A stretch of 64,000 nucleotides of DNA, taken from positions 1,585 through 65,584 of the forward strand of contig CAISZK010000072.1 in the NCBI GenBank assembly GCA_903889915.1. Direction: 5' to 3'. Position 1 is the first letter of the stretch. Each line of letters opens with the position of its first letter. The translations under genes were made by a program, and so were the position numbers. Source of the stretch: an uncultured Bacteroidota bacterium (GTDB taxonomy: Bacteria; Bacteroidota; Bacteroidia; Bacteroidales; CG2-30-32-10). Below the pieces are notes generated by a model. The model searched no databases. It had not been told where the DNA came from and was given only the letters and a program-made list of their open reading frames with translations. Positions 4,553-54,356 of this stretch are shown here, in pieces.

Positions 4553-6307
4553 ATGAACAATACTGACCGAAACATATTATCAGAGATCGCTTCCGCATTT
4601 GGCGACAATGCCATCCTTTATCATCAGTTGACAAAGGATGACACGCCCACTATCTGGATTGAAAAAAACAGTCTGGTGAAGGTATTGCAACATCTGAAGA
4701 ACGGAATAAGCGAACCCTATAAAATGCTTTTTGACCTTACCGGCATTGACGAACGAACAAGAACGCATTTAAATGGTCAGCCAAAATGTGATTTCACAGT
4801 GGTTTATCACCTCACTTCTTTTGAACGAAATGAAGACATCCGCATCAAAGTTCCGCTCAAAGAAAACGATCTACAATTGCCCACCATTACCAATGTTTGG
4901 GAATCGGCCAACTGGTACGAGCGCGAGGTTTACGATATGTTTGGTATTGACTTCACCGGTCATCCCAAACTGACAAGGATATTAATGCCCAGGTCATGGA
5001 AAGGTTTCCCGTTAAGAAAAGAACATCCGGCAAGGGCTACGGAACTTGCACCTTATGTATTGACAGAAACAATGAGGGATGAAGAGGAAGCCGACCTGAA
5101 ATTTAACCCTGCAGAATACAGGATGGAAACAAAAAGTGAAGACAGTGATTTCATGTTTCTGAACATAGGTCCTCAACATCCCGGAACACATGGTTTATTG
5201 AGATTGATCGTTCAACTGCACGGTGAAGATATTGTGGACATCATTCCCGATATAGGTTTTCATCATCGCGGCGCTGAAAAAATGGGTGAAAGGCAGTCAT
5301 GGCATACGTACATTCCCTACACCGACCGCATTGATTACCTGAGTGGCGTTATCAACAATCATGCATACCTGCTGTCGGTTGAAAAACTTGCAGGAATAAA
5401 GATACCCGAAAGGGCTGATGTGATACGCATCATGATGAGCGAGCTTTTCCGTATTGCAAGTCACCTTGTATGGATCGGCACTTTTGCACAGGATATGGGA
5501 CAGATGTCGCCGGTGTTCTATGCCTTCAACGACAGGGAAAGAGTGTTTGATATAGTGTCGGCAATAACAGGTGGCCGCATGCATCCTTCCTGGTTCAGGA
5601 TAGGCGGTGTGGCTCATGATCTGCCCGATGGCTGGGAAAAACTTGTTCAATCCTTTGTGGATTATTTTCCGAAACGACTGAAAGAATATGACAAACTCAT
5701 TATAAAGAACTCAATTTTCAAAGCAAGAACGGTTGGCATCGGCGTTTACACAACTGAAGAAGCTATTGAATGGGGAATAACAGGCTCAGGACTCAGAGCT
5801 ACCGGATATAACTGGGATTACCGCAGGAAACGCCCTTATTCACGCTATGAAGATTTCGATTTTGAAATACCACTGGGAAAGAATGGCGATTGCTACGACA
5901 GGGCGATTGTGCGAATGGAAGAAATGCGGCAAAGTCTGAGAATAGTGCAGCAATGCATCAACAACATGCCTGCGGGGCATTACAAATCCGATCATCCGCT
6001 GACAGTACCTCCCAGAAAAGAAAAGACTATGCAGGATATTGAAACGCTCATCAACCATTTTGTAAACGTTTCATGGGGTCCTGTAATTCCTGTCGGCGAA
6101 GCAATGGTGCCGATTGAAGGAGCCAAAGGGATCAATGGTTATTATCTGATAAGCGATGGAAGCACCTCATCCTACCGCTCACGGATAAGAACGCCTTCAT
6201 TCCCGCACATGCAGATGCTGCCATTTATCAGCAAGGGATATACGATCCCTGATCTGCTTTCTATACTTGGCGCAATGGATTTTGTTTTAGCTGACCTCGA
6301 CAGATAA
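4553..6307 (+). CDS. nuoCD: NADH-quinone oxidoreductase fused subunit C/D
   Basis: 584 aa. The N-terminal part is NuoC-like ([14 protein letters not shown]). The C-terminal part is NuoD-like ([11 protein letters not shown] ... DFVLADLDR). Confidence 0.95.
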
Positions 6308-16913: not shown

Positions 16914-16948
16914 TCAACGATTGATACAGATAATAATTTGATATTATT

Positions 16949-17101
16949 GACTATTGACTAATGACTAATGACCAATGACAATTAATGACAATTAATGACC
17001 ATCAATGACCATTAATGACCATCAATGACCATTAATGACCATCAATGACCAATGACAATTAATGACCATCAATGACCATCAATGACAACTGACCAATGAC
17101 C
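16949..17101 (+). repeat. 7/10-bp tandem repeat (GACYAAT / GACMATYAAT) running into the nuoN start codon
   Basis: About 18 contiguous units. The last unit, caATGACC, supplies the nuoN ATG at 17096. Confidence 0.85.
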
Positions 17102-19790: not shown

Positions 19791-20219
19791 TTGCGCGCGT
19801 TTCAAACTCGTGCCCCCCCAAAATCCAATCCCCCCGAAACCTGCCAGCGTTTCCTTCCAAAAACTGGCAGCGTTTAATCAAAAAATTCAACTCCATCCCC
19901 ACCGTCCCCTTTTTCTATTTTCTATCATCAATCTTCTATCAATAAAAAAAGCCCCTTTTCAGAGGCTTTGTATTTGGAATTTTAAATTTACTTCCCAAAT
20001 CAAAAATCCTAACTAGGAATCCATGTAATCTTCACCCTTGTAGCCTCACTCTTACTTGTTTCTTTCGTTAGTGTCACTGTAACTTCTTTTACAATCAGTT
20101 AAAAGTATAGCATCTTTAATCGTAATGAAAATCTACTCTATGAAATTACTTATTCGCTAAATTAAAAATGCAGACAACCCAATAGAGTTGTATATTTCCT
20201 AAATGATGATGGCATTCTC

Positions 20220-20555
20220 CTTAATTGAAATGCAATTCTCCTTAATTATTTGTTCTTCTTCCTTAATTATTGTTTTGTTTTACTTAATTGAGATTCTATT
20301 TTCCTTAATTGAGTCACCGTTTTACTTAATGATAACTCCATCGGACTTTATGACAGTTGCGGACACCATTATAGACATGACGTTGGACATTATGACAGTT
20401 ACAGACACCATTATAGACATGACGTTGGACATTATGACAGTTACAGACACCATTATAGACCTTACATCGGACATTATGACAGTTACAGACACCATTATAG
20501 AGATGACAGACACCATTATTGAAGTGAAAGACTCCATTATTGAAAAATCACACTT
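20220..20555. repeat. 21-bp-period array A (16 units)
   Basis: cTTAAt/cATTAt heads occur every 21 bp from 20220 to 20535. The central part is a 42-bp repeat x4 (ggacattatgacagttacagacaccattatagacatgacgtt). Confidence 0.85.
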
Positions 20556-20724
20556 TGTTAGATTCGTTGAAAAACCCTCCCTTTTGTATAAAGTTACTCA
20601 TTTCAAGCATTTGCTCATTAAAAGCTCTTTTCAATCAGTCCTAATCAGCCTTTTCAGTTACTGGATAACCCACGTTTCCATCGCATGCTCCAAATAATTT
20701 CCAATTCCCAATTTCCCTGCCTTC

Positions 20725-20810: not shown

Positions 20811-21365
20811 ATGAAGGATTCCAAAAAGGAAATTGATGAAATATTAAAAGAATTTCCTGAAAATATTGCACAGCTATTCCACCATCTGCAGCAGGAAACA
20901 AACACCATTGCCAGAATTGATGCGAAAAACAGTCTCGAGAAAATGGGAAAAAGCATTCTTCCTTATTTGAATAAACTCCTCTTTGTGCACGATGAAATGT
21001 TCCGCAGGGAAGTTGCAAAGATCATGGAATTTATAGCTGACAAAACATCCATCCCGGTATTTATTGATCTTCTTGAGGACAGTGATGGCGGCATCCGCTG
21101 GACCGCTGCCGTAGGTTTGATCAGCATTGGCCGCGACAGCATCATCCCGCTTCTCAAAGCAATTCTCGACGATGAAAATGGTTCCTATTTCCTGCGGTTG
21201 GGCGCCCATCATGCTTTTGAATCTTTATTTAACGACGATGAAAAGATCACACTGAAACCCTTGCTCCTTAGCCTGAATAACTACCTTGGCATGGGCGAAA
21301 CCGTGTCACTCGAAACCCTCCATGCTCTGAAAAAATTTGAACAAAAGAATAATAAAAAGAGGTAA
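20811..21365 (+). CDS. HEAT-repeat protein
   Basis: 184 aa with repeated helical-hairpin motifs of HEAT/PBS-lyase type (LLEDSDGGIRWTAAVGLISIG). Confidence 0.6.
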   Translation: MKDSKKEIDEILKEFPENIAQLFHHLQQETNTIARIDAKNSLEKMGKSILPYLNKLLFVHDEMFRREVAKIMEFIADKTSIPVFIDLLEDSDGGIRWTAAVGLISIGRDSIIPLLKAILDDENGSYFLRLGAHHAFESLFNDDEKITLKPLLLSLNNYLGMGETVSLETLHALKKFEQKNNKKR

Positions 21366-21368
21366 AAT

Positions 21369-21438
21369 TCCAAGATCCAAGATCCAAATTCCAAATTCCA
21401 AATTCCAAGATCCAATATCCAATATCCAATATCCAACA
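21369..21438 (+). repeat. heptamer microsatellite TCCAARW x10
   Basis: Ten contiguous 7-bp units fill the HEAT-tal spacer and end 5 bp before the tal ATG. Confidence 0.9.
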
Positions 21439-37520: not shown

Positions 37521-37688
37521 CATTTAATGACGTCAAGGAATCACTCACTGACGTTCAGGAATCACTCAAAGTAGTCTTGTAATGATTTATTGAAGTCTTT
37601 GAGTCATTTATTGAAGTCTTTGAGTCATTTATTGAAGTCTTTGAGTCATTTCCTGAAGTCAGTGGGGCATTCCCTGACATCAGTGAGG
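37521..37688. repeat. 21-bp-period array B (8 units)
   Basis: Units start at 37521, 37542 and so on to 37668. The core is catttattgaagtctttgagt x3. Unit heads carry TGA(C/A)GTC. Confidence 0.85.
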
Positions 37689-37789
37689 AGCAAAAAGAAC
37701 GCTCATTTTGGATTATTTAATTTAGGATTCATGAAAAAGTAAAAAGGTATAAGAAATTTGAAATGCCCTTTTATACCTTATCCCCAGAT

Positions 37790-37866
37790 GACCATTGACC
37801 ATTGACCATTGACTAATGACCATTGACTATTGACTATTGACTATTGACTAATGACCATTGACAATA
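37790..37866 (+). repeat. heptamer microsatellite GACYAWT x11
   Basis: Eleven contiguous 7-bp units lie 56 bp upstream of the glyQS ATG. Confidence 0.9.
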
Positions 37867-40851: not shown

Positions 40852-40867
40852 AAACTTACTCATATCT

Positions 40868-40917
40868 GACAATTGACCAATGACTCAATGACTATTGACT
40901 ATTGACAATTGACTATA
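40868..40917 (+). repeat. heptamer microsatellite GACNAWT x7
   Basis: gacaatt gaccaat gactcaat gactatt gactatt gacaatt gactata. Same family as the arrays at 16949 and 37790. Confidence 0.85.
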
Positions 40918-41618: not shown

Positions 41619-41951
41619 TCAGGCAATGGCAGGAAGTTCAAATGTTGTTGCCAGAATTTCAAAGATATTCTTTTTGTTACCCAGTTTATCTGTGTACTGT
41701 CTGTTGACCAATTTTCCGGTCAGTGACAACTGGATACCCTTCTTCGCAATTTCTGCTGCTTTTTCAGCAGTTTTGTTCCACATCACAATGTTGTGCCATG
41801 TTGTGTTCTTTACCCACTCGCCTGCTTTGCTCTTGTAATCTTCACTTGTAGCAAGCGAAAATCTCAGCATTTTGCTGCCATTGCTTAATGTTTTTACTTC
41901 AGGTTCTACACCAATGTACCCACTCAATTCCACTTTGTTTGTTGTTTTCAT
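41619..41951 (-). CDS. ssb: single-stranded DNA-binding protein (short, no acidic tail)
   Basis: 110-aa OB-fold pattern (VELSGYIGVEPEVKTLSNGSKMLRFSLAT ... WHNIVMW ... LTGKLVNRQY). It ends ...ELPAIA. Confidence 0.75.
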   Translation of the reverse strand: MKTTNKVELSGYIGVEPEVKTLSNGSKMLRFSLATSEDYKSKAGEWVKNTTWHNIVMWNKTAEKAAEIAKKGIQLSLTGKLVNRQYTDKLGNKKNIFEILATTFELPAIA

Positions 41952-42291: not shown

Positions 42292-45276
42292 TTATTTTTC
42301 TGCAGCTATTTGTAACTCATTACTATCAGCAACATACTTTTTAACCGATGCCTCATTTAATTCATCTGTCAATAAATTAAAAAACCTACTGACGAGATAA
42401 TTGGCCAATCCTTTATCCTTTGAAAGCTTGTTCATGAATTTAATAGGAGGTTCAGCATTCTTCAATAAAGCTTTATCAATACTCTCTCTCAATTTAATTC
42501 TTTTAACCTCTTCAATATTATTGGCTCGGAGACTTGCCATCAAAGACATGTCTTGTTTAAGTGAGTTATACATTTCTTTTACTACTTTATCATCCTCTCC
42601 CAAATCAATGGCATATTTATCATTGATTTCCTTAACGATTACTTTTAGGACTTCTTTAGGGTCCTGACGCGGACCATACCCGCCTCCCTGTTTGTTCTCG
42701 ATAACAGCATCTTCCGGGCTAAGAATAATACTTCCGTTTTCTTCTTCCTGAATTTTGAATTTGTCCATGTCAACCATTTGAGTAACCTCCAATGGCAGGG
42801 TTTCCTTTTCATAAGGAAGGTATTTGAAAAGTAGCTTGGTGAACAAATAAAACTTCTCAAGGTCTGTATCAATAAATGTAATGATCTGCGAAATGAAGGA
42901 ATACTGACGAACATATTTGTTAACATTCTTTCTGAATTTGTCCTTATCATCAGGAGAAAGAATTAAATATTTTTCGTCAACAATCTTTTTAAAGAAGGAT
43001 GAAAGCACCTCTGATTTTACCTTCTTGCGAACAAACATTTCAATAAAGTAATCCACCTCTTCCTTTGTAAATACATCAGCTTTCTCAATTTCATATTTTA
43101 AATTGTATAGCTTCTGCTTGTCTGTTGCTTTATCAAGAATGGTGCTTTGATAATAATTTTGAAAATCGCTTTGAATATCTTCCTGTTTGTTTACAAAATC
43201 TATGATAAAAGTATCCTGCTTTCCTTTTGCTGTTCTGTTAATACGGCTAAGAGTTTGAACAGTGGCTACGCCGCCCAGAGCTTTATCAACATACATTGTG
43301 TGTAACAGAGGCTGGTCAAATCCTGTCTGGAATTTATTTGCTACGATCAAAATTTTATACCCGGGTTTTTTAAATTCTTCTGCTATATCTTTTACTTTGG
43401 GGCCATTCATATTGCCTTCAGTATATTTTTCGCCTTCAAGTTCAACAGTACCGGAAAAAGCCACCAATGTTTGAATATTCCATCCCTGTACTTTAATGAT
43501 CTTATCAAATGCTTGTTTGTAAAGTACGGCATGTGCCCTTGAACAAGTAACTAACATTGCTTTTGCCTTACCACTAATTTTATGAATAGTCTTCTCCATA
43601 AAATGATTTAGCATGATATGGCTTTTGGATGCAATAGAAAAAGGATGTTTGTTTACCTCCTTTAAAAGTAATCTTTTTGCTTTTAGTTTTTCAAATGCTT
43701 TATTGTCTTCGGCATTTTCATTTTCTATTAATTCGAAATAAGAGCTTTTTGTAATGTAATTATCCAAAACATTTAAAATAAATCCTTCATCAATCGCCTG
43801 CCGCATCGTATATTCATGGAAAGCACGAAAATTTGCTTTTTGAGAAATATCCGGGATGCCAAACAATTCTAAGGTTTTAGGTTTTGGAGTTGCAGTAAAA
43901 GCAAAGAAAGATAAATGCGCCAATTTCTGGCGGCTTGCCATTATTTTCTCTAATTGTGCTTCAACGGTATCTTTAGGTTCTTTGTTTTCATCGTCCTGTG
44001 AGATTATTTTCTTTAATGCCTCGTCTGTAGTAAGGCTCAATTTTAAATCTTTTACATTTTCACCGCTTTGGCTACTGTGAGCTTCATCAACTATTATTGC
44101 AAAACGTTTTCCATTTAGTTTGGCAACTTCACCGATATAGCCAAATTTCTGAAGCGTACTGATGATGATCTTATCACCTTCAATCAATGCCTGCAATAAT
44201 TGTTTGCTTCCTTTTTTAATACTTTTTACCGTACCATTAATTTTCTCAAATTGTTTGATCTGCTTTTGCAATTGCTTATCTAAAACTATCTTGTCGGTAA
44301 TTACAATGATGCTGTCAAATATAGGCTCCTGATTCTGTCCAAATAAATTGGCAAGTTGGTGGGCAAGCCAGGCAATGGTTTTGCTCTTGCCGCTTCCGGC
44401 GCTATGCTGAATAAGGTAATTATGCCCTGTACCGTCTTTTTTAACCTGAGCTAATAATTTACGGACACAGTCTCTCTGATGATAACGAGGAAAAACAGTG
44501 CTTATCTCCTTGGTCTTTTCATCCTCTTCATAGAAAATGTAATTGTTCAGCATTTCCAGTAAACTATCAGCCTGCAGTATTTCTTCCCATAAATAGCTGC
44601 TTGCAAATTTATCAGGTATAACAGGGTTATGTGTATCTCTGTTAAATGGAAGAAAACGGGTGTTGCCGTTTTCCAATTTTGTTGTCATCAATACTGCATT
44701 ATTATCAACAGCAAAATGCACCAAACAGTTTTTCAAAAACGGATCTTTGCTATCACGTCGTTTACTGTATTGTTCAACAGCATGAGTTAGATTTTGTCCT
44801 GTAAATTCATTTTTTAATTCTAAGGTAATTATTGGGATGCCATTAATTGCAATTACTAAATCCAAACTGTTATCCGGAAATTGGCTGCTATAATGCACTT
44901 GCCTTATAATAGAGAATCTGTTTGCTTCATAATTCTTTAAATGTTCAGGGTTCAAACCAGATGACGGTTTGAATGAAATCAATTTAATGCTTGCACCCTG
45001 CAATACAAAACCTTCGCGTAACAAAGTAAGCACACCTCTTTTATCACGAAGCTTGGAAAATTCATTGGCAACTGCTTCCATAGTGTTTGAAGGAAATTGT
45101 TTTTCTAATCTCCGCCATGTATCGGGTTGAGTATTGTGTATAAATTGCTCCAGCAATTCTTTATCCAAAATATACTCTAAATCGAAGTCTGTACTTTTAC
45201 GAAGCGTAAATAATTTACTTTCCTTTAGTAAATCAAATACAGTGTCTTCAAAATTTACTTCTCTTGTTTCACTCAT
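42292..45276 (-). CDS. hsdR: Type I restriction enzyme R subunit
   Basis: 994 aa. N-terminal PD-(D/E)xK-like DLVIAINGIPIITLELK, helicase motif I HSAGSGKS, and DEAH box IVDEAHSSQ. Confidence 0.9.
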   Translation of the reverse strand: MSETREVNFEDTVFDLLKESKLFTLRKSTDFDLEYILDKELLEQFIHNTQPDTWRRLEKQFPSNTMEAVANEFSKLRDKRGVLTLLREGFVLQGASIKLISFKPSSGLNPEHLKNYEANRFSIIRQVHYSSQFPDNSLDLVIAINGIPIITLELKNEFTGQNLTHAVEQYSKRRDSKDPFLKNCLVHFAVDNNAVLMTTKLENGNTRFLPFNRDTHNPVIPDKFASSYLWEEILQADSLLEMLNNYIFYEEDEKTKEISTVFPRYHQRDCVRKLLAQVKKDGTGHNYLIQHSAGSGKSKTIAWLAHQLANLFGQNQEPIFDSIIVITDKIVLDKQLQKQIKQFEKINGTVKSIKKGSKQLLQALIEGDKIIISTLQKFGYIGEVAKLNGKRFAIIVDEAHSSQSGENVKDLKLSLTTDEALKKIISQDDENKEPKDTVEAQLEKIMASRQKLAHLSFFAFTATPKPKTLELFGIPDISQKANFRAFHEYTMRQAIDEGFILNVLDNYITKSSYFELIENENAEDNKAFEKLKAKRLLLKEVNKHPFSIASKSHIMLNHFMEKTIHKISGKAKAMLVTCSRAHAVLYKQAFDKIIKVQGWNIQTLVAFSGTVELEGEKYTEGNMNGPKVKDIAEEFKKPGYKILIVANKFQTGFDQPLLHTMYVDKALGGVATVQTLSRINRTAKGKQDTFIIDFVNKQEDIQSDFQNYYQSTILDKATDKQKLYNLKYEIEKADVFTKEEVDYFIEMFVRKKVKSEVLSSFFKKIVDEKYLILSPDDKDKFRKNVNKYVRQYSFISQIITFIDTDLEKFYLFTKLLFKYLPYEKETLPLEVTQMVDMDKFKIQEEENGSIILSPEDAVIENKQGGGYGPRQDPKEVLKVIVKEINDKYAIDLGEDDKVVKEMYNSLKQDMSLMASLRANNIEEVKRIKLRESIDKALLKNAEPPIKFMNKLSKDKGLANYLVSRFFNLLTDELNEASVKKYVADSNELQIAAEK

Positions 45277-45287
45277 AAAAAATCCTT

Positions 45288-47135
45288 TTAATTAAAATAC
45301 TCAACAGACCAAAGCTTTTCACAAATGCGCTGAAATAATTTTAAACGTTCTCCAATATCTTTACACTTAAAATGTGGGTGAGCCTTGAATTCCAAATCCC
45401 GTATAACTTCTGAATTTAAAAAATTAGGATTTTTTGAATAAAACAAAGGATGCAGAGTTTGTGCATAAATGTTTTCTTTCAAATAGTGTTCAAGTTTATC
45501 TTCATATATATCGCTACTAAAGGATTGATTTGTTCCATTCGGCAATAGCAAAAGCGCACCAATTGAATTCCTCCAATCCTGAAATTCATTTTCCTGTTCA
45601 AATTCATCTCTATGCTCCTCAAATTTATTTGCCCAAATGTGTTCTATTTCAAATTGTTTTCCATTAGGGTGATGATAGAAAACATAATTAGTACCTTTCC
45701 CTGCAAGATTATCAATATAGCTGCTCGTACGAGAAAGTAGATGCTTTACAAATTTTCCATTTTGTCCATTTAAACAAAAATTCCAGGTACCATCCCAATC
45801 CACATCCATTTTTTCAATTTCAACAGATAAATTTTTCCCAAGCAAAGCAGTATCATTGTTCCGAATAAGTTTAATCACATTGAACATGCTATATTTAATG
45901 GAGGTTTGACCAAACTTTCGAGAATTAATTGCTCGTTTTACAGCAAAGGTTTCAATATAACGAGAAACAAAATCAATTTTCTTTTGAATTGTTTCATTAT
46001 CGTCAGCAAAATTAATGGGAGCTATTAATAATGGATTCTGTAAAGATTCTGCAATTCCCCATCGGGTTATATAATTTGCATGAGGCATGTTTGAATTAAA
46101 ATCTATTTCTGCATCCCAAATTTTCAAATACCATTTAACATAAAATGGAAATTGATTTTTGAAGAAATTATAAAAATCATCAGATGATTTTAGTTTAAAT
46201 AAAGTTCTATAATTATCCTTAAACCAATTATGAAAACGCGAACCAATCAATTCAAAATCCTTATCCTCTGAATCTACTTTTCCTGGACGGATTGAAACTG
46301 CATACTTACCCCTAAACCAAGCCTGGAAGAAGCCCTGATCTGCATTTTCATCATAATCATGAAGCTTTTGTATTTCGGTTTTCCAAAGGTCATTGATTTC
46401 ATTTCGTTGCTTTTTATCTGTAATCTTTGATAATACGAATCCCTTTAACATTTCTGTTGGGGTAAGATTTAATCCACGATCATTCATCGTTTCAAAAATC
46501 ATATAGGCATTATCATCTGAATACGCAGTAATTTCAACTAATACAACATTTTCAACGAACCAGTCAATAAAAAATGGCAATGCGTTTTGAGTTAATTCCT
46601 CAGGAAAGCATTGTTCAATATCATTATAACGTTCAACCATATTTTTAACGGTTTCATCATCATCATCCTTTATGAAATATTCCCCATTTTCAAACAATGC
46701 TTTTAAGCAAGGCTCTCTCATTTCATCACTCATGTTAAAAGATTTCTCACCGTACTTTTCAGAGAATACAAGCTCACTTATTGACACTTTTTGTTCGCTG
46801 TCTTTCTGCAAATGGTTGAGGTATATTAAAAGCAAAGTGATAGAAGTAATGCGTTGCTGCCCATCAATAATAGACTTTTTACCATTGACAGGATTAATAC
46901 TAAACACCACAGGTCCTAAATAATAATTTTGGTAATTGGCAACATCTGAACGTTTATTCTCTTCTTTATATGATTTATTAAATGTAGAAGTTAAATCTTC
47001 TACCATAAGTTTAATATGCTTTTCCTGCCAGCGAAATTCCCGTTGGAAATAATCAATTGTAAACTTCTGATCCTTTAACAATGCGCTAATGCTGGTGTCT
47101 TTGGCTTCAATTTTGTTTTTTAGTTTCTGACTCAT
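45288..47135 (-). CDS. DUF262 + DUF1524 protein (GmrSD-family Type IV restriction-like)
   Basis: N-terminal IIDGQQRITS (DGQQR motif of DUF262/ParB-like NTPase). C-terminal FEIEHIWA His-Me-finger-like motif (DUF1524). Confidence 0.7.
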   Translation of the reverse strand: MSQKLKNKIEAKDTSISALLKDQKFTIDYFQREFRWQEKHIKLMVEDLTSTFNKSYKEENKRSDVANYQNYYLGPVVFSINPVNGKKSIIDGQQRITSITLLLIYLNHLQKDSEQKVSISELVFSEKYGEKSFNMSDEMREPCLKALFENGEYFIKDDDDETVKNMVERYNDIEQCFPEELTQNALPFFIDWFVENVVLVEITAYSDDNAYMIFETMNDRGLNLTPTEMLKGFVLSKITDKKQRNEINDLWKTEIQKLHDYDENADQGFFQAWFRGKYAVSIRPGKVDSEDKDFELIGSRFHNWFKDNYRTLFKLKSSDDFYNFFKNQFPFYVKWYLKIWDAEIDFNSNMPHANYITRWGIAESLQNPLLIAPINFADDNETIQKKIDFVSRYIETFAVKRAINSRKFGQTSIKYSMFNVIKLIRNNDTALLGKNLSVEIEKMDVDWDGTWNFCLNGQNGKFVKHLLSRTSSYIDNLAGKGTNYVFYHHPNGKQFEIEHIWANKFEEHRDEFEQENEFQDWRNSIGALLLLPNGTNQSFSSDIYEDKLEHYLKENIYAQTLHPLFYSKNPNFLNSEVIRDLEFKAHPHFKCKDIGERLKLFQRICEKLWSVEYFN

Positions 47136-47146
47136 TTTATAGTATA

Positions 47147-47527
47147 TTAAAGTTTTTCTAATGATAATTTCGTGTTCGTTAATACTTTTTCAAAATCTTC
47201 ATTGACTTGTGTTGCTTTATGAAAAGACGAGAATATTTCGATAATTGAAGGATAAAGCATATCGGTTTCCATTACACGAATCTGAATGTGTTTATAAAGT
47301 TTTCTGCTTTCACTAAATAATGCTGACTGCATCTCGTAAATATCATCAGTTGCTTTTTTAATGTTTCCAAAATTATATCCAAGAGCCATTATATCCGTAT
47401 AGACATTATCCAAATAACCTTCCTTTCCAAGATCAGGGTTTGCTCGGTATGCCTCTTCTTTGACAATTTGCTCTAATTTTTCAATAAAGCATTTTTTAAT
47501 TTCAGCTAATAGCTCGTTATAATTCAT
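47147..47527 (-). CDS. hypothetical protein (126 aa) embedded in the Type I R-M operon
   Basis: ATG start, same strand, with 11-bp and 32-bp gaps to its neighbours. Predicted helical, with no recognisable motif. Confidence 0.5.
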   Translation of the reverse strand: MNYNELLAEIKKCFIEKLEQIVKEEAYRANPDLGKEGYLDNVYTDIMALGYNFGNIKKATDDIYEMQSALFSESRKLYKHIQIRVMETDMLYPSIIEIFSSFHKATQVNEDFEKVLTNTKLSLEKL

Positions 47528-47559
47528 GGTTTGTTTTTTAAATTATTTTTTATCCTATT

Positions 47560-48936
47560 TTAGTTTTCTGCGGCAATTGACAAGGGTCGCTCTTCGCTGC
47601 CATATTGATTCTCCTTCTTTTTAGCTTCCCATCCCCTCACATCTATTTTCCCCGTTACTGCCTGACTTATTAATGATGTCCGGTATTCTTGCATTAAATC
47701 TATTTGCTTTTGGTATTTGGTGATTAATGTATCAATGGTTGAGGTTTCTTTATTTATATAATCTATGATTGCCTGTTGCTCATCAATTGGAGGAATCGTA
47801 AATTCAAATATTTCAAAAACATTTTGGTATAAATGCAAAATTGTTGTTCCTGTTGTCGTAATATTTATGAATTGTGTGAATACATTTGAATTTAAAATAA
47901 AATATAAGAAATCTGATTTGTATTTCCGCAAAGGTCGAACAACAAAAACGCCACTATTTAAAGATGCAAAACCTTTCAGACCTTTAACAACTGCTGTTTT
48001 GCCAATTGTTCCGTCTTTCGTTATAAGCAAATCATCTTCTCTCAATTGAATATGTTTGTCTTGCAAATACCTTTCTTTTGTAATTTGGTAGCAAGTTTTC
48101 CAATTGACAGTTCCATTGATAAAATCTGTTCCTGTAACTAAAAATGCATATTCATTCTCGAAAAATTCATCTGACCTTAAACCATCCCAACCTATTCGTC
48201 CTTTAATATAGGAGGTGTGTTTAATTTTCCAAATCTCCCAATGTTCCGGTATATCCCCAATCCACCCAATTCCGCTCGCCTTTAACTTTACATTTTGGTC
48301 AATGCCTTTTGTTACCGCTTTATTGATAATCCCTGCCTTCTGCTCCTTCAACAATTCAATCTGCTTTTGACGGCTTGCAATAAACCTATCTATCTGCCCT
48401 GTTTTGTAATCAAGAAAACGAACGATGGAGTGTTGTTCGCGGAGGGAGGGGTATGGAATGAATATTCTTGATTGAGATGTTTTATTAATTATTGCAACAA
48501 CATTTGTCGTTGAATTCTTCCATTGCTCATCTTCACTCGCAATAAAAGAATATACTCCAAATTTTGGATTTATTTTTTCAGGATTAAAAGTAAAGGAATT
48601 TATCTGCTGATTTGTTATACAGTTAGAACCAGCAATACCAAATTTACCAATAGTGCCTATAGCACAAGTTAACAGAGAAAATTCCTTTATCAGTCTTGAG
48701 TTTTCAAGTGCTTTTTTTGTAATTTTTTCTTTACTATCAATAATTGGAGTAAACCCATTTAATTCGTCCGGTTTAACGAATAAAATATTTCCCCCTTCGT
48801 AATTTGAATTATCTACTTTGGGAGGTGTTGAGCCCGTTTCAATATTTGCTACAAATTTAAATTTAATTGCATCCCATTCTGATGGAATTTCTTTTACCCA
48901 ATCCCTTCTCTCTTTATATGCTGGATACTTTTTCAT
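47560..48936 (-). CDS. hsdS: Type I R-M specificity subunit
   Basis: Two target-recognition halves are separated by conserved coiled regions (LREQHSIVRFLDYKTGQIDRFI... and IDEQQAIIDYINKETSTIDTLI...). ATGA overlap with hsdM. Confidence 0.85.
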   Translation of the reverse strand: MKKYPAYKERRDWVKEIPSEWDAIKFKFVANIETGSTPPKVDNSNYEGGNILFVKPDELNGFTPIIDSKEKITKKALENSRLIKEFSLLTCAIGTIGKFGIAGSNCITNQQINSFTFNPEKINPKFGVYSFIASEDEQWKNSTTNVVAIINKTSQSRIFIPYPSLREQHSIVRFLDYKTGQIDRFIASRQKQIELLKEQKAGIINKAVTKGIDQNVKLKASGIGWIGDIPEHWEIWKIKHTSYIKGRIGWDGLRSDEFFENEYAFLVTGTDFINGTVNWKTCYQITKERYLQDKHIQLREDDLLITKDGTIGKTAVVKGLKGFASLNSGVFVVRPLRKYKSDFLYFILNSNVFTQFINITTTGTTILHLYQNVFEIFEFTIPPIDEQQAIIDYINKETSTIDTLITKYQKQIDLMQEYRTSLISQAVTGKIDVRGWEAKKKENQYGSEERPLSIAAEN

Positions 48937-51080
48937 TCAACAACTTCTTTAATCTCATTCAGCAATTCTTCCGTTTGTTCTTCTAATGCTTCAATATCAT
49001 TCATAATTTTTTTCAAATCACGCAGTGGTTTGTATTCATAAAAGAATTTAGTAAAAGGTATTTCGTAACCAATTTTATCTTTTTCCCTGTCCATCCAGGC
49101 ATCGGGTGCAAAGGGCAATACTTCGCGTTCAAAATATTCGGTAATATCTTCTTTCCATTTAATATTTTCGCTATCGCGCAAGTCGCTATCGAACAAAGGT
49201 TTTTCTTTCCAATCACATATTCTTCCTTTTTGTACCGGCACATCAAAGGGGTCGGCAAAAACCACTTCGGCTTCTTCGTTTTTTTCGCCCAATATATCAC
49301 GATACATTTTCAGCAAAGCTTTGCCCGGTTGGTTTCCAAAAGCTTTTTCAAAAGCGGCAAAGAAATTTGCATCATCCATTTCTCTCGTATGCTGCGCCTG
49401 TCGAATGGTTTCTATTGCTTTCAATATTTTTTCCTGCATGGCTTTGCCTTTAGCAATATCAGCTTCGGCTGCCGCTTTGTCCTTCTTTTTGCTGGTGGCA
49501 AACTCTTTAAACTTGCTATGCTCTTTTAATGCTTCAATTTTTTCGTCTGTTATTTCATAAGCCAAACGCAGTGGCCTTTCTACTATTACCTTGGTATATT
49601 TAAAATCTGTAACATCGTAAATCTTGCTCACCTCTATTGCCCGCTTAATCTTTTCGCCCGGCTTATGAGGATTTTCCTCTTCCACTTCTATGCTGTGATT
49701 TTGGAAGGCTTTATACATGTCGGTTATCAGGCTTATGCCATCTTCGCTTATTTCATATTGCTTTTTACCGAGGGATTTTATTTTCTTCGTAAAACTTGAA
49801 TGAACAGCATTTATCAACTGAACTTTTCCTTTTCTATTGTCAGGTTTTTTATTGTTCAATATCCAAATGTACGATCCAATGCCAGTGCCATAGAACAGGT
49901 CCTTTGGCATGGCGACAATGCAATCCAATAAATCGTTGGGGTCGTCCATAATCCAACCGCGAATATTGCTCCATCCACCGCCGGCATCACCATTAAACAA
50001 GGGGGAACCATTAAACACTATGCCTATGGTACTGCCAGTTGGATTCATTTTACTGATCATGTGTTGCAGAAATAAAAACGAACCATCGCTTACATCGGGA
50101 GTCCCTGCACCAAAGCGACCACTAAATCCATCTTCCTCTGATTCATTTTCCACAAACTCACGGATGTTTTTCCAGTCATCACCAAAGGGAGGGTTGGTAA
50201 GCATGTAGTTAAAGGTTCTTCCTTTCAGTTGGTCTTTGGTGATGGTGTTTCCATGCTTGATGTTTTCGGCATCTTCACCTTTCATCAGTAGGTCAGATTT
50301 GGCAATAGCATAAGTTTTTTCGTTTATTTCCTGTCCATAAACCCAAACATCAAGATTTTTATTAACGCTTTGCTGCAAATAATCTTTTGCCGTTGTAAGC
50401 ATACCGCCAGTTCCGCAACATGGATCATAAATATTAATACCTGCTCCGGCTTTTTGTAGCTTCTCCGTTTCGTTCGCAAACACAAGGTTTACCATCAGGC
50501 GCACAATTTCTCTTGGAGTAAAATATTGCCCTGCCTTTTCGTTGCTTGTTTCTTTCGATTTACGAATAAGGATTTCGAAAATGGTTCCCATGTCGTGATT
50601 ACTCACTTTGTCGGGATGCAGATCAATTTTAGGAGAAACAAATTCTTTGGTAACTATCAGCAAAAGATCTTTGCGCAATAGCGTTTCGTAAATAGGTGAT
50701 AAACCCTTTTCAGGTCCGCCGCTAAAATTGTAAAGTATTTCTTTGATGTTATCGCTAAAGCCTTTGAGATATGCATCAAAGTTTACCCCAATGTTGTCAA
50801 TATCTTTGGTAAGCCCCGACAGAGTATAATCAGACGTGTTATAAAAATTCTTGCCCGATGCTTTCTTTAAAAGTTGGTCAAGCACACCCGGTGTTGCCTT
50901 ATCTTTGAATTTCTCAAATTCCTTTACTACTTTTTCGTGAGATCCCTCCAATTCGCAGTCAATGCGCCTCAATAAAGTAAAAGGAAGAATAACATCTTCA
51001 TAATCCTTCTCGGCATATTCGTCCCTGATGTGTTCTTTGATTCCCCAAATAAATTCGGATATCTCGTTGTGGTTTTCCAT
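48933..51080 (-). CDS. hsdM: Type I R-M N6-adenine DNA methyltransferase subunit (long form)
   Basis: Motif I YDPCCGTGGML, motif IV LTNPPFGDDW, plus an HsdM N-terminal-like region and a long C-terminal extension (715 aa). Confidence 0.9.
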   Translation of the reverse strand: MENHNEISEFIWGIKEHIRDEYAEKDYEDVILPFTLLRRIDCELEGSHEKVVKEFEKFKDKATPGVLDQLLKKASGKNFYNTSDYTLSGLTKDIDNIGVNFDAYLKGFSDNIKEILYNFSGGPEKGLSPIYETLLRKDLLLIVTKEFVSPKIDLHPDKVSNHDMGTIFEILIRKSKETSNEKAGQYFTPREIVRLMVNLVFANETEKLQKAGAGINIYDPCCGTGGMLTTAKDYLQQSVNKNLDVWVYGQEINEKTYAIAKSDLLMKGEDAENIKHGNTITKDQLKGRTFNYMLTNPPFGDDWKNIREFVENESEEDGFSGRFGAGTPDVSDGSFLFLQHMISKMNPTGSTIGIVFNGSPLFNGDAGGGWSNIRGWIMDDPNDLLDCIVAMPKDLFYGTGIGSYIWILNNKKPDNRKGKVQLINAVHSSFTKKIKSLGKKQYEISEDGISLITDMYKAFQNHSIEVEEENPHKPGEKIKRAIEVSKIYDVTDFKYTKVIVERPLRLAYEITDEKIEALKEHSKFKEFATSKKKDKAAAEADIAKGKAMQEKILKAIETIRQAQHTREMDDANFFAAFEKAFGNQPGKALLKMYRDILGEKNEEAEVVFADPFDVPVQKGRICDWKEKPLFDSDLRDSENIKWKEDITEYFEREVLPFAPDAWMDREKDKIGYEIPFTKFFYEYKPLRDLKKIMNDIEALEEQTEELLNEIKEVVE

Positions 51081-51192
51081 TTATGTTTGATTAAGTATTA
51101 AAGTGGTAAATAAGGTATTTGTTATTTAAAATCCAAAAGTAAATAAAAATGGAATCAAACTAAATTTAAAATGGAATCTTAAGAATGTCATT

Positions 51193-51597
51193 TTATTGTT
51201 CCTTCCCTACTCTTCTCACTGTCACTGTCACTTTCTCAATCCCCTTATTCATTAATATCTGCTCAAGTATTTTTTCCGGGCAATCAAATTGCAATGTCAG
51301 ATCTTTTAAAGAAATAACATTCAAATAGCGCTCTAAAACCACCTTTTGTCTTTCCTTAGAGTAAGATAATTTATTGGCAATAGAAATGGTTTTTGAAATT
51401 ACGTTTTGATAGTACTGCAAAACAAATATCAGTTCAGTTAAAATTTTCGGATTAATTATCAATTCCTGATGTGATTTTTTTCTTTCAACATTTTGTTGAA
51501 TCCGCACATATTTTTCCCATAATTTATGATTGATTATGCCAATCAAAAAAGGATTTTTGTTGTATTCCTGTAAAGTTGATCGTTGTAGTCCTACCAT
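51193..51597 (-). CDS. hypothetical protein with C-terminal HTH-like segment
   Basis: ATG at 51597, 112 bp upstream of hsdM on the same strand. The C-terminal SKERQKVVLERYLNVISLKDLTLQFDCPEKILEQIL resembles sigma-70 region 4 / LuxR-type HTH spacing. Confidence 0.45.
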   Translation of the reverse strand: MVGLQRSTLQEYNKNPFLIGIINHKLWEKYVRIQQNVERKKSHQELIINPKILTELIFVLQYYQNVISKTISIANKLSYSKERQKVVLERYLNVISLKDLTLQFDCPEKILEQILMNKGIEKVTVTVRRVGKEQ

Positions 51598-51875
51598 GCT
51601 GAAACGGGTTATTTGAGGATAAAATTAATGTCAGGTTTTCCTCAAATGAAACAAGGCGTAAAAGTATAACAATTTATTTTGTCAGCAAATAAAAATCTCA
51701 TCTTCCTTTTATTTATCGGCTAGAAAAATAGTCATTCATTCCACTTTTACAGACTCCAACTTCCATCACTTTTATTCATCGTCCCTAACATTCATTTTTT
51801 AGTATTTTTAGTGTTTCGCTTGTCAAAATAATAGCTTTTCAACGCCCGGAATCACCCTCTATTTTATCCATAAAA

Positions 51876-52169
51876 GTTGCAACTTTTTCCGAAGTTGCGT
51901 CAACTTTTTCCGAACTAGTTGCAGCAAGTTCCAAAAAAGTTGCAACTTTTTCCAAAGAAGTTGCAACTTTGTTCAAATTAGTTGCAGCAACTTCCGAAGA
52001 AGTGTCAACTTTTTCCGAAGAAGTTGCAACTTTGTTCAAATTAGTTGCAGCAAGTTCCGAAAAAGTGTCAACTTTTTCCGAAGAAGTTGCAACTTTTTCC
52101 AAACTAGTTGCAACTTTATTGGAAAAAGTCGCAACTAGTTCCAATAAAGTTGCGACTTTTTCCGAAGTA
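51876..52169. repeat. 21-bp-period array C (14 units) built on the palindrome AAAGTTGCAACTTT
   Basis: Units start at 51876, 51894 and 51918, then every 21 bp to 52149. Six units carry perfect GTTGCAAC. A 63-bp higher-order repeat runs 51960-52022 and 52023-52085. Confidence 0.9.
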
Positions 52170-52241
52170 TTTGAGGTAATAAAAACATCACAATATACAT
52201 TATCAGGCAGTTGCTAAAATTTCATAGGATTTGATAAGGCC

Positions 52242-52281
52242 AAAAAAAAATTGCCGGACCAAATTCAGTCCGGCAATTTTC
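52242..52281 (-). terminator. rho-independent terminator of the 259-aa gene
   Basis: 10-bp stem attgccggac (52250-52259) / gtccggcaat (52268-52277). Nine T follow on the minus strand. Confidence 0.8.
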
Positions 52282-52308: not shown

Positions 52309-53088
52309 TCAGTGAGTAAGTTTTATTTTCAATATAGTTCCCCACTCCTGGGGGATATCGTCAATTATTAACCTGTGGCGGAAAAACAGGTCAACATTTA
52401 TTGGCATACCTCCTATTATTTTTTTTGATCTGTGTTGGCAGGTAATAGGATATTCGTACCACCGTTTAGGATCGTTTTGATCAAGATTTACCTGGATTTC
52501 ATGAATTGCATTTTTTCCGGGTTTTGTTCTGCATTTAAATTCAACCTCACCATCAATACCGGTGGCAGCAACTTTGTCCTCATTAGGTCTGCGGCCTTTT
52601 GATATTTTGGTGTCCATTCCACAAGACTGGGCAATTTCTTTTTCATGTCCGATTGTTGCATCAACCAACTGTTGTACGTATCCGGTTGCAATTTGAGAGA
52701 TCATTCTTTTCACAACTTTCAATTCAGCCAGGCGGGCTTCGGCAGTTCCATCGGCATGTGTATTTGCGAGTGCAGTGGCAGTATCGAGTTTTCCTATCTC
52801 AGTGGCCACATCTGTGAGAGAAGGTTTCACATCGGCAGGAGTTACCCATGTGGTGTGATTCATTTTGTAAACAACATCTTTGCAAGTTGAAATTTGACCA
52901 TCAATGTCGTCAGGGAATTTCACAACAACTGTGTGGTGTGGGGAAGGTAACGGAACAGGGGTGCTGAACATAACAAAAATTACTCTTCTCTTTGCAAATT
53001 TGCCGGATCTGTATCTTTTTGGTATGGTTCCCCTTCTTAGTTGACGTTGAGTTATCACCCACGGCAACAATGAAATTTTTTCATACAT
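52309..53088 (-). CDS. hypothetical protein (259 aa), no recognisable family
   Basis: Long ORF with an ATG start, its own -7 box and a strong terminator. No signal peptide or TM segment. An internal alternative start is MFSTPVPLP. Confidence 0.6.
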   Translation of the reverse strand: MYEKISLLPWVITQRQLRRGTIPKRYRSGKFAKRRVIFVMFSTPVPLPSPHHTVVVKFPDDIDGQISTCKDVVYKMNHTTWVTPADVKPSLTDVATEIGKLDTATALANTHADGTAEARLAELKVVKRMISQIATGYVQQLVDATIGHEKEIAQSCGMDTKISKGRRPNEDKVAATGIDGEVEFKCRTKPGKNAIHEIQVNLDQNDPKRWYEYPITCQHRSKKIIGGMPINVDLFFRHRLIIDDIPQEWGTILKIKLTH

Positions 53089-53274: not shown

Positions 53275-53369
53275 CAAAGGTAAATCACGGAGAAAGGGAT
53301 TTTATCTGTTTTTTTTTAAACGGTAGGATTTTTTGACGAACGGTAGGATTTTTTTTTAAACGGTAAAAG
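53275..53369 (-). promoter_or_regulatory. -7 box (TACCTTTG) plus three 20-bp-phased direct repeats (candidate LytTR operator)
   Basis: The minus-strand TACCTTTG lies at 53282-53275. cggtaggatt at 53321 and 53341, and cggtaaaagc at 53361, give an exact 20-bp period. The middle repeat reads CCGTTCGTC on the minus strand (53343-53335). Confidence 0.5.
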
Positions 53370-53373
53370 CGCC

Positions 53374-53862
53374 CTAACAACTAATGCCATTTCTGAGCCT
53401 GTAATTGAAAAGAGCATCACTAAAAAACGGGTAAATATCTCTTGTACATTTAGGGTTGAGTTCGGGAATGTCCATCTTAATAAAATGTCCGCTATACGAC
53501 TTATCGGTTGGGAAAACAGTTACTATATGGCCAAGATTTAAGTACCACGATTTATGTGTGCGGTAAAAACAATCAGTTTGCCGGTTAAGCTCCTCCTCAA
53601 TCTCGCAAAGACCTATAACCACGAGTTCCTGAACCATGATTTTTTGGGGCTGATAAAATGCAAACAATTTTGAGTAGCTGCCATCGGCATGAAAACAGAT
53701 TATATCCGGAAAATAAATGAGGGGCTTGTTACAATTTTCGTTGTAAAAACATCCTGATTTTATTTTGTACGAACTTCCCATCTCTGATTGATGAAAAGGC
53801 TGATTCCTGTTGGCAGACAGTGGCATTTTAAAGTCCATTGGAGGCAGGAAATTATAAGCCAT
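53374..53862 (-). CDS. stand-alone LytTR-domain DNA-binding protein (no receiver domain)
   Basis: DIICFHADGSYSKLF ... GLCEIEEELN ... FYRTHKSWYLNLGHI ... IKMD...NPKCTRDIYPFF matches the LytTR pattern (adgnYt..h, sL.ele..L, F.R.HRS..VNl..I, vSR). ATG at 53862; the track start at 53904 is TTG. Confidence 0.7.
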   Translation of the reverse strand: MAYNFLPPMDFKMPLSANRNQPFHQSEMGSSYKIKSGCFYNENCNKPLIYFPDIICFHADGSYSKLFAFYQPQKIMVQELVVIGLCEIEEELNRQTDCFYRTHKSWYLNLGHIVTVFPTDKSYSGHFIKMDIPELNPKCTRDIYPFFSDALFNYRLRNGISC

Positions 53863-54356
53863 AATTACGCCTATAAAGATATGCAATAAATATAGAAAAA
53901 GCAAGTTATTTATCGAAAAAAGTTATTAACATTTACCCTTTAAATAAAAGTATATTGACAATAAATAAACCGGAGATTGGGAGAAAATAAAATTAGAAAT
54001 TTGTGAGGAAAAATACCCAAGGCAATCCTGTGCGTTCTCAGTGTAATTCCATGAAATAAAAAAATGATTTGTCATTAAACCATGTATTTTCTTTATTCAA
54101 TATGATTACCCGATTGAACTTTATTGTTCTTCACTTTTTATGATCTACCAGCATATTATTGCAATGCGGTATTATCTATACAAAGTGGCTTTGTTTCATT
54201 TGTCCGCCTTTATAATTTTCAATCTCTTTATTCTATCAATAATTTTCTTTTCCACCTCTTATCAGGCTTTCTCCTGTTCTGATATTATTCTCATCTCCTG
54301 ATTTTCTGCTTCCTACCACATACACAAACTCATATATGTTAAGATGGTTAACAAAA

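Follow-up and report, generated by a model that had tools for sequence, protein, structure and literature searches.

What kind of element is a run of palindromic 21-bp units that lies between two genes of a bacterial chromosome? The question is raised by array C, a tandem repeat at 51876..52169 (no strand assigned) in 64,000 nucleotides of contig CAISZK010000072.1 from an uncultured Bacteroidota bacterium; this whole stretch of DNA, which was the subject of the analysis, is referred to below as the window. An initial annotation had taken the array for iterons of a replication origin or for a partition centromere. Our analysis favors a different answer, to which we assign a probability of about one half: array C would be a non-coding, lineage-specific, hairpin-prone intergenic minisatellite of the variable number tandem repeat (VNTR) type, with a 21-bp unit that forms a perfect dyad. 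If so, it is neither an origin nor a centromere, and it is untranslated.

Anatomy, symmetry and coding status of array C

Direct reading and Tandem Repeats Finder (TRF) both supported the initial annotation in placing 14 head-to-tail units at this location. Each unit is exactly 21 bp long, with the consensus AAAGTTGCAACTTTTTCCGAA (register shifted by 3), and TRF detected periods of 21, 42 and 63 bp (score 346 at period 63; 84% matches, 0% indels). Unit starts had been given as 51876, 51894 and 51918; this parse of 18 + 24 bp is unnecessary, and the array follows a strict 21-bp register (51876, 51897, 51918 and so on). A 63-bp higher-order repeat composed of three unit types (51960..52085) is indeed present twice, as had been noticed, and its two copies, 51960-52022 and 52023-52085, differ at 2/63 positions (61/63 identical). 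At the left edge of the array there is a degenerate half-unit (51859..51875), whose sequence, TTTTATCCATAAAA, was judged by eye to resemble TTTTTCCGAAGAA. The same array sequence occurs in independent JGI, ENA and Logan assemblies, and therefore it is not an assembly artefact. The units abut without spacers, and the Rfam CRISPR-DR model scored 19 bits against a threshold of 40, in agreement with the earlier view that these are not clustered regularly interspaced short palindromic repeats (CRISPR).

The exact core GTTGCAAC was found in six units (51876, 51939, 51960, 52023, 52086 and 52107) and once outside the array in the 64 kb (6647). When up to one mismatch to AGTTGCAACT was allowed, 8 matches were located in the array and 2 elsewhere, with 2.7 expected for the whole window. 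Thus, the count of six units with an exact core was correct, but the 14-bp palindrome that was thought to surround it in each case, AAAGTTGCAACTTT, is present in two units only (51873 and 51936); a 12-bp palindrome, AAGTTGCAACTT, is present in five. Every core variant reported at that time could be located (GTTGCGTCAAC at 51894, GTTGCAGCAAC at 51981, GTGTCAAC at 52002 and 52065, GTCGCAAC at 52128 and GTTGCGAC at 52149), and GTTGCAGCAAG (51918 and 52044) should be added to them. The cores of units 13 and 14, which are two of these variants, appear by eye to be exact reverse complements of each other, and this fits hairpin-templated correction. Unit type b is distinguished from type a by an apparent compensated change (+GCA/-TTT). 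The units of array C differ at up to approximately one third of positions and contain T5 runs, yet no net indel was observed. A 7-bp sub-period, such as three decayed heptamers per unit would leave, was not found in the array (lag-7 identity 0.23).

The initial annotation recognized the palindromic core but understated the symmetry, as the entire consensus unit is palindromic. It is self-complementary at 20/21 positions, the highest value that an odd length allows, and 38 of 200,000 composition-preserving shuffles (~2e-4) reached this value. Of its two dyad centers, one falls between GTTG and CAAC and the other, 10.5 bp away, on the central C of TTCCGAA. For the whole array, self-identity with the reverse complement is 0.69, compared with a lag-21 self-identity of 0.67. 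Conservation is spread evenly over the unit and is not concentrated in the core. Predicted RNA folding energies were -129.5 and -125.2 kcal/mol for the two strands (z ~ -12.8), and DNA folding gave a z of -12.2. The frequency of the minimum free energy (MFE) structure in the ensemble was low and the plus-strand centroid differed greatly, which suggests that the array can fold in many registers and without strand bias.

The predicted folding also bears on an explanation of a different kind, in which a structured multi-hairpin RNA is made from the minus strand, in the orientation of the flanking genes, and serves as a 5' leader, as a tandem terminator or insulator, or as a protein-sequestering RNA. 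The very stable folding (z ~ -12.9) is consistent with such an RNA, as are the presence of GGA in 11 of the 14 units, the many dyad centers that read cUUCGg on the minus strand and the terminator-like hairpins that were flagged at the array edge on both strands. In addition, some analogous arrays of other genomes (L022 and L026, described below) are located between convergent genes. However, a strong minus-strand terminator is situated immediately upstream, and no promoter motif was found from this terminator to the array. The two strands fold equally well, no structure dominates the ensemble and MFE frequency is low, which argues against a strand-specific structured RNA. No Rfam family matched the array at gathering thresholds, and permissive searches returned only generic hairpin models of the microRNA type (up to 40 bits), far under their cut-offs. 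It also counts against this explanation that CsrA-type partners are not known in Bacteroidota. On balance, we consider a structured RNA quite unlikely.

Translation of the array has to be considered as well. No stop codon interrupts plus frame 1 or minus frame 2 within the array, and both frames read ...V-A-T.... Their product would be a coiled-coil-like heptad-repeat protein, of the KVATFSE type on the plus strand or of the EKVATSS type on the minus strand, the latter being the called 101-aa open reading frame (ORF). Several features agree with a protein of this kind: in the plus frame, V and mostly F/L are found at the heptad a/d positions; the unit length is divisible by 3, and what look like indels come as +3/-3; a 101- or 80-aa gene at 51839-52144 (-) is annotated by metagenome gene callers; and the 101-aa ORF gives a borderline match to Pfam TMP_N (27.8 bits, cut-off 27). 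However, neither open frame has an ATG, GTG or TTG upstream of the repeats. Both ORFs, 51839..52144(-) and 51969..52217(+), begin with TTG, as the initial annotation stated, and these codons lie within the repeats. A search of 5.8 billion proteins returned no homolog of the 101-aa ORF at E <= 1e-3. The matches of this ORF in Pfam, PHROGs and PADLOC (TMP_N, a PHROG tail protein, Cas11a and ZorA) are weak and do not agree with one another, as is expected of a periodic low-complexity peptide.

Open frames on both strands, with mirror-image peptides, are explained by the palindromic unit itself. Moreover, variable positions are not enriched at third codon positions, and comparable arrays either have stops in every frame (array B of the window and L020, both described below) or alternate between 20 and 21 bp (L019); in L020, stops in all six frames exclude coding. 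The array is thus non-coding, in line with what had been proposed on the grounds of the mirrored translations; coding is unlikely, and a functional heptad-repeat protein in particular we regard as very unlikely. The annotated 101- or 80-aa gene with its TMP_N match is likely a false positive caused by periodicity, and array C, called as a gene in this way and grazing a Pfam threshold, is a source of false proteins.

Tandem repeats in the window and the minisatellite explanation

Tandem repeats are common in this genome. TRF arrays that reach a score of 50 account for 15.8% of intergenic versus 0.07% of genic bases in the window, and 8 of the 20 intergenic spacers of at least 150 bp contain tandem arrays. 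The genome has a general propensity for intergenic tandem repeats, and against such a background a tandem array is the rule and not the mark of a special locus. Three arrays of the window (A, B and C) have a 21-bp period; their units are unrelated, and 210-280 bp lie between the end of each array and the co-oriented start codon that follows it. Array A (20220-20555) consists of 16 units in strict 21-bp register, each with a conserved 9-bp head (C[TA]TTA[AT]KRA) and a free 12-bp tail. One frame of array A is open from an ATG (ORF 20203-20697, 164 aa) and encodes heptads with hydrophobic a/d positions; this array represents phased sites or else a coiled-coil ORF. Array B (37528-37695), located upstream of a heptamer array and glyS, has 8 units of 21 bp, the first two of which contain the perfect palindrome TGACGTCA, and shows stops in all six frames.

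Heptamer arrays are a further class. They were detected at 16948-17101, 21365-21436, 37789-37862 and 40867-40916 of the window and on the contigs L047 (7800-7862) and L042 (~135-170). Their units are TGACTAA, TGACCAT, TGACTAT, CAATGACCAT and AAAATCC, for which TGAC[CT]A[AT] and AAAATCC are the general forms; TGACCAA is the reverse complement of the cyanobacterial STRR2 repeat (TTGGTCA). Heptamer arrays occur directly upstream of the start codons of a nuoN-like gene, the transaldolase gene, glyS and an ACR_tran gene, and one is inside the nuo operon. Approximately 12 kb of extra sequence from this genome contained more heptamer arrays and no further 21-bp array.

Array C has properties of a minisatellite, namely head-to-tail repeats and higher-order structure in non-coding DNA. 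We infer that it arose, and that it changes length in unit register, by slipped-strand mispairing or unequal recombination, with identical units at a distance of 21 or 63 bp as the partners. As the units are self-complementary, displaced strands could fold into hairpins in many registers, and slipped intermediates would thereby be stabilized. Intra-strand template switching in quasi-palindromes may then push the arms towards perfect symmetry. The array would have no dedicated function; an effect on the cell, if any, would be exerted at the DNA level, possibly through the array's action as a phased, cruciform-prone spacer with T tracts that precedes the next promoter, or through opportunistic docking of proteins.

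At least 13 metagenome contigs that derive from other samples carry the same locus, with flanks that are 99.6-100% identical. JGI, BUCK and Logan assemblies show the array with 14 units; the 11-unit form is confined to MEGAHIT k141 assemblies. There are two versions of the 11-unit form, each corresponding to a 63-bp deletion between identical units 63 bp apart, so that one copy of the 63-bp higher-order repeat is missing. Many short-read contigs end in array C. If copy number truly varies, it would provide a strain marker for this lake Bacteroidota population. No single-nucleotide polymorphisms (SNPs) were seen in the 294-bp array, as against ~0.3% in the flanks, but the strains are near-clonal and at such identity zero SNPs in 294 bp are uninformative on constraint.

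Several considerations weigh against the minisatellite explanation. First, all 11-unit contigs come from MEGAHIT k141, and these variants could be assembly collapses and not real length polymorphism. Second, as all copies of the locus derive from near-clonal strains, conservation cannot be judged from them. Third, no unit has gained or lost a base despite the divergence of the units and their T5 runs, which suggests a constraint on unit length that a neutral repeat does not need. Finally, array A and L020 keep the 21-bp phase while the rest of the unit drifts freely, and this is the signature of phased binding sites.

Genomic setting and the possibility of protein binding

The window represents a Bacteroidota chromosome, with a nuo operon and genes for transaldolase, 6-phosphogluconate dehydrogenase (6PGD), glyS, PorZ and cargo proteins of the type IX secretion system (T9SS). 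Along the minus strand, a 176-aa gene is followed by a 259-aa gene, a terminator, array C, 279 bp of unique sequence, a 134-aa gene and a type I restriction-modification (RM) cluster. The spacer that holds the array is 711 bp long and extends from the terminator of the 259-aa gene to the promoter region of the 134-aa and type I RM genes. This intrinsic terminator (52238..52280, minus strand) has a 13-bp stem, AAAATTGCCGGAC/GTCCGGCAATTTT (hairpin 52247-52280), followed by a T run, and separates the array from upstream transcription. The hairpin and the T run confirm the earlier placement of the array between this terminator and the 134-aa gene. An SSB gene that was also said to be near is in fact 10 kb away (41619-41951). 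The Bacteroidota promoter motif TAnnTTTG was not found between the terminator and the 134-aa start, nor did the window show any enrichment for it.

The type I RM cluster (42292..51080, minus strand), which is downstream of the 134-aa gene and co-oriented with it, encodes HsdM, HsdS, a 126-aa unknown protein, GmrSD and HsdR; the GmrSD gene and the gene for the 126-aa protein are inserted between hsdS and hsdR. Past ~53929 of the window the flank differs among strains, and contig L001 (1-5160) carries SprB/PKD and AhpC genes there, which points to a variable defense island; array C is located at the edge of this island. Two other short repeats are found nearby, a 20-bp unit, TTTTTTTTTAAACGGTAGGA, repeated 2.8 times at 53309-53365 between the 259-aa and LytTR-like (176-aa) genes, and a 22-bp unit repeated twice at 51136-51178 between the 134-aa gene and hsdM. 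The 259-aa gene itself (52309..53088, minus strand), upstream of the array, is a near-orphan: family searches with its protein gave no match, and the single relative is 45% identical. This relative has an in-frame TAA (L042 842-844, also in L043), after which C-terminal homology continues in frame; the interruption, which is seen in two independent assemblies, marks a pseudogene or a nonsense allele.

How does this setting agree with the proposal that array C consists of iterons of a replication origin, or is a partition centromere, belonging to an integrated or former mobile element? The 21-bp unit and the copy number are in the range of iterons and some centromeres, the units are dyad-symmetric, a DnaA-box-like site (TTATCCATA, 8/9 match, 51864-51872), part of the degenerate half-unit, adjoins the array, and the array is at the edge of a defense island whose far flank varies among strains. 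However, this site is not part of a cluster of boxes, classical iterons are directional and not palindromic, and the backbone is chromosomal. No Rep, ParA/ParB, ParM/ParR, integrase or relaxase was detected among the scanned neighbors (Pfam, PHROGs, NCBIfam and PADLOC), and neither the array DNA nor the 134-aa protein had a match in 72,556 plasmids and 50,697 phage genomes. The two other 21-bp arrays of the window lie beside housekeeping genes, and where tandem arrays are the rule they do not mark a replicon. The iteron or centromere proposal of the initial annotation was thus not supported, and we regard it as highly improbable.

The accompanying remark that the layout suits dimeric DNA-binding proteins does hold, as dyad sites occur every two helical turns. 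It is possible, although clearly short of probable, that array C is a phased operator or docking array, in which a dimeric protein binds cooperatively to 14 dyad sites two helical turns apart, which thus share one side of the helix, and regulates or insulates the downstream 134-aa and type I RM genes. The strongest argument for such an array is the strict 21-bp unit length: the perfect dyad unit is repeated in strict phase with no net indel. It also agrees with this possibility that L020 and array A keep a core and a fixed phase with a free spacer, and that all three 21-bp arrays of the window end at a similar distance (210-280 bp) before the next co-oriented start. On the other side, the 8-bp palindrome is intact in only 6 of the 14 units, and in type-b units the half-sites are 3 bp further apart (GTTGC-A-GCAAC), which a rigid dimer could not tolerate. 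The even spread of conservation shows no focus on a core, isolated sites are lacking elsewhere in the 64 kb (2 outside the array at up to one mismatch), and the unrelated units of the three 21-bp arrays would each need a protein of their own.

Two neighboring genes encode candidate binding proteins. The 134-aa gene (51193..51597, minus strand) has its start codon 279 bp from the array edge. An AlphaFold2 model of its product, built from a 61-sequence alignment (pLDDT 87), has four strands and a long helix followed by a three-helix bundle. In Foldseek searches, the N-terminal half matched Borrelia, Drosophila and human Pur-alpha (3nm7, TM score 0.76, target-normalized, probability 1.00). Family members match HTH_7, HTH_38 and PurA, the C-terminal three-helix helix-turn-helix (HTH) being similar to HTH_7/HTH_38. 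The protein is therefore predicted to consist of a single PUR repeat with the Pur-alpha fold, an HTH_7-like domain and a basic tail. A single PUR repeat is expected to dimerize, as Borrelia Pur-alpha does, and such a dimer would bring two HTHs together. This predicted architecture is consistent with a docking array, and the PUR-repeat and HTH family provides a concrete, testable candidate binder.

The family comprises ~130 clusters at 50% identity, all of ~140 aa; Pfam has no separate entry for it, and it has no members in the plasmid or phage collections. No comparable array was present at four loci that encode relatives of the 134-aa protein (43-62% identical); at one of them, L041, the same position is occupied by an unrelated 116-bp repeat (x2.3) and by A/C-rich repeats of 9-25 bp. 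Array C is thus not a conserved cis-element of the 134-aa family, which counts against a docking array. In L046, 300 bp downstream of a PUR-HTH homolog, there is a 56-nt inverted repeat (4710-4822, 98% complementary) with 11-bp tandem units CTTGTGTGCTT.

The second candidate is the 176-aa protein (53374..53904, minus strand), a stand-alone LytTR-like protein whose similarity is weak (Pfam LytTR, E 0.005; PDB 3d6w, E 0.08) and which has no paralog within the window. The LytTR consensus is [TA][AC][CA]GTTN[AG][TG], and AAAGTTGCA agrees with it by eye at only 6 of the 8 specified positions. A LytTR repeat is 9 bp long and the direct repeats of an operator are separated by 11-13 bp; a separation of 12 bp gives a period of 21 bp. 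LytTR direct repeats are indeed mostly separated by 12 bp, and this agrees with a docking array; however, known sites are pairs of direct repeats located immediately upstream of the -35 element (PMC6193735). Array C is not placed in this manner: 279 bp separate its edge from the next start, and no promoter motif was found beside it.

We also asked whether similar arrays occur in other genomes. A scan for AGTTGCAACT-N11-AGTTGCAACT in one genome per species, a pattern that itself selects for the core, returned 18 loci, whereas random sequence would be expected to give ~0.5. Long tandem arrays that have the core of array C and essentially its period account for six of these loci. They are found in a Bacteroidota metagenome-assembled genome (MAG) with 19 units and stops in all six frames (L020, 1245-1643), in two Acidobacteriota with 14 units (L022, 1667-1968) and 8 units (L030, 5787-5964), in a member of the Bacteroidales with 11 units (L026, 1546-1776), in a member of the Tenuifilaceae with 20 units (L029, 1135-1557) and in Geomonas silvestris (Desulfuromonadota) with ~27 units that alternate between 20 and 21 bp (L019, 7046-7667). 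All six are intergenic and share the core (A/G)GTTRCAACT, and most have a 42/63-bp higher-order structure. Five of the six show 0% indels at unit identities of 69-88%. In L020 and L022, the core is kept while the remaining bases drift; retention of core and phase with a drifting spacer is the signature of phased sites. However, tblastn and Pfam searches revealed no neighboring gene common to array C and the six arrays, which counts against a docking array. They adjoin unrelated genes, and some are between convergent genes. In L020, the array is followed by a gene with an XRE-type HTH and by a 251-aa gene, neither detectably related to the 134-aa and 259-aa proteins.

Since the search pattern selects for the core, the recurrence of core and period across phyla may be chance convergence. 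A more far-reaching idea, which we find doubtful, is that strictly 21-bp-phased (A/G)GTTRCAACT arrays may be DNA docking platforms of a recurrent kind that has not been described. They would be occupied, along one side of the helix, by a dimeric DNA-binding or nucleoid-associated protein of wide distribution, as a chromosomal analogue of centromere-like nucleoprotein filaments. That core and period recur together in different phyla would merit a census.

Other elements were noticed as well. In Acidobacteriota, two AGTTGCAACT exactly 21 bp apart with variable spacers form a dispersed element (L017 3877, L018 870, L021 5498, L028 4858 and L031 2437) that adjoins ATTTCTAATCG...CGATTAGAAAT hairpins in unrelated gene contexts; by its sequence, it looks like a family of the miniature inverted-repeat transposable element (MITE) or repetitive extragenic palindromic (REP) type. 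Several TTGCAAC repeats at 21-bp spacing (…AGTTGCAACTTTTGCGCC.ATAGTTGCAACTTTTGCAACTGT…) were present in related phage contigs (L032-L034 and L037-L040).

Comparison with known repeat systems

The choice between hairpin-driven minisatellites and cooperative protein-binding platforms upstream of a defense operon is the question that array C raises, and a comparison with known systems helps to frame it. Plasmid iterons (R6K, RK2, pPS10, F and P1) have units of ~17-22 bp, present in 4-14 copies with helical phasing. Array C resembles them in unit length, copy number and phasing, but it differs in the palindromic nature of its units and in lacking a nearby rep gene, a plasmid or mobile backbone and, apparently, a module of DnaA boxes and AT-rich unwinding sequence. 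Partition centromeres are likewise built of short tandem repeats (4 x 20 bp in pSK41 parC, 10 x 11 bp in R1 parC and 12 x 43 bp in F sopC), with a period near two helical turns in pSK41; some are dyad-symmetric and are bound cooperatively by dimers of ribbon-helix-helix (RHH) or HTH proteins. In contrast to them, array C is chromosomal, has no adjacent gene for a parA/parM-type NTPase or for an adaptor and was unmatched in the 72,556 plasmids.

With LytTR operators, the array shares the 21-bp period, if a repeat of 9 bp is assumed, and a LytTR-like gene is 1.2 kb away. Unlike these operators, it has 14 dyad-symmetric copies, is at least ~200 bp away from the likely promoter and appears to match the consensus weakly.

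REPs and bacterial interspersed mosaic elements (BIMEs) are extragenic palindromes in clusters of alternating orientation, to which the locally self-complementary array bears some likeness (PMC3733652). However, a REP is scattered over tens to hundreds of loci and bears a GTAG or CGTC tag (PMC3733652), whereas the unit of array C is restricted to a single locus of the 64 kb and has neither tag. TAACTGA repeats are found upstream of start codons in Beggiatoaceae, cyanobacteria and a few Bacteroidetes, and the heptamer arrays of this genome share their layout (PMC4679880). Array C is different from these as well, being palindromic, without a 7-bp sub-period and ~280 bp from the next start.

The remaining comparison is with prokaryotic VNTRs. 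Surveys of long simple-sequence repeats in prokaryotes, as summarized in PMC4679880, covered classes of 1-11 nt (Mrazek et al. 2007). Relative to the repeats in that summary, array C has a longer unit, which forms a perfect dyad and stays at exactly 21 bp across diverged copies, and its copy-number polymorphism may be an assembly artefact. What it has in common with the VNTRs described there is the head-to-tail arrangement of intergenic units, an abundance that is specific to the genome, apparent length changes by whole units and a sporadic phylogenetic distribution (PMC4679880).

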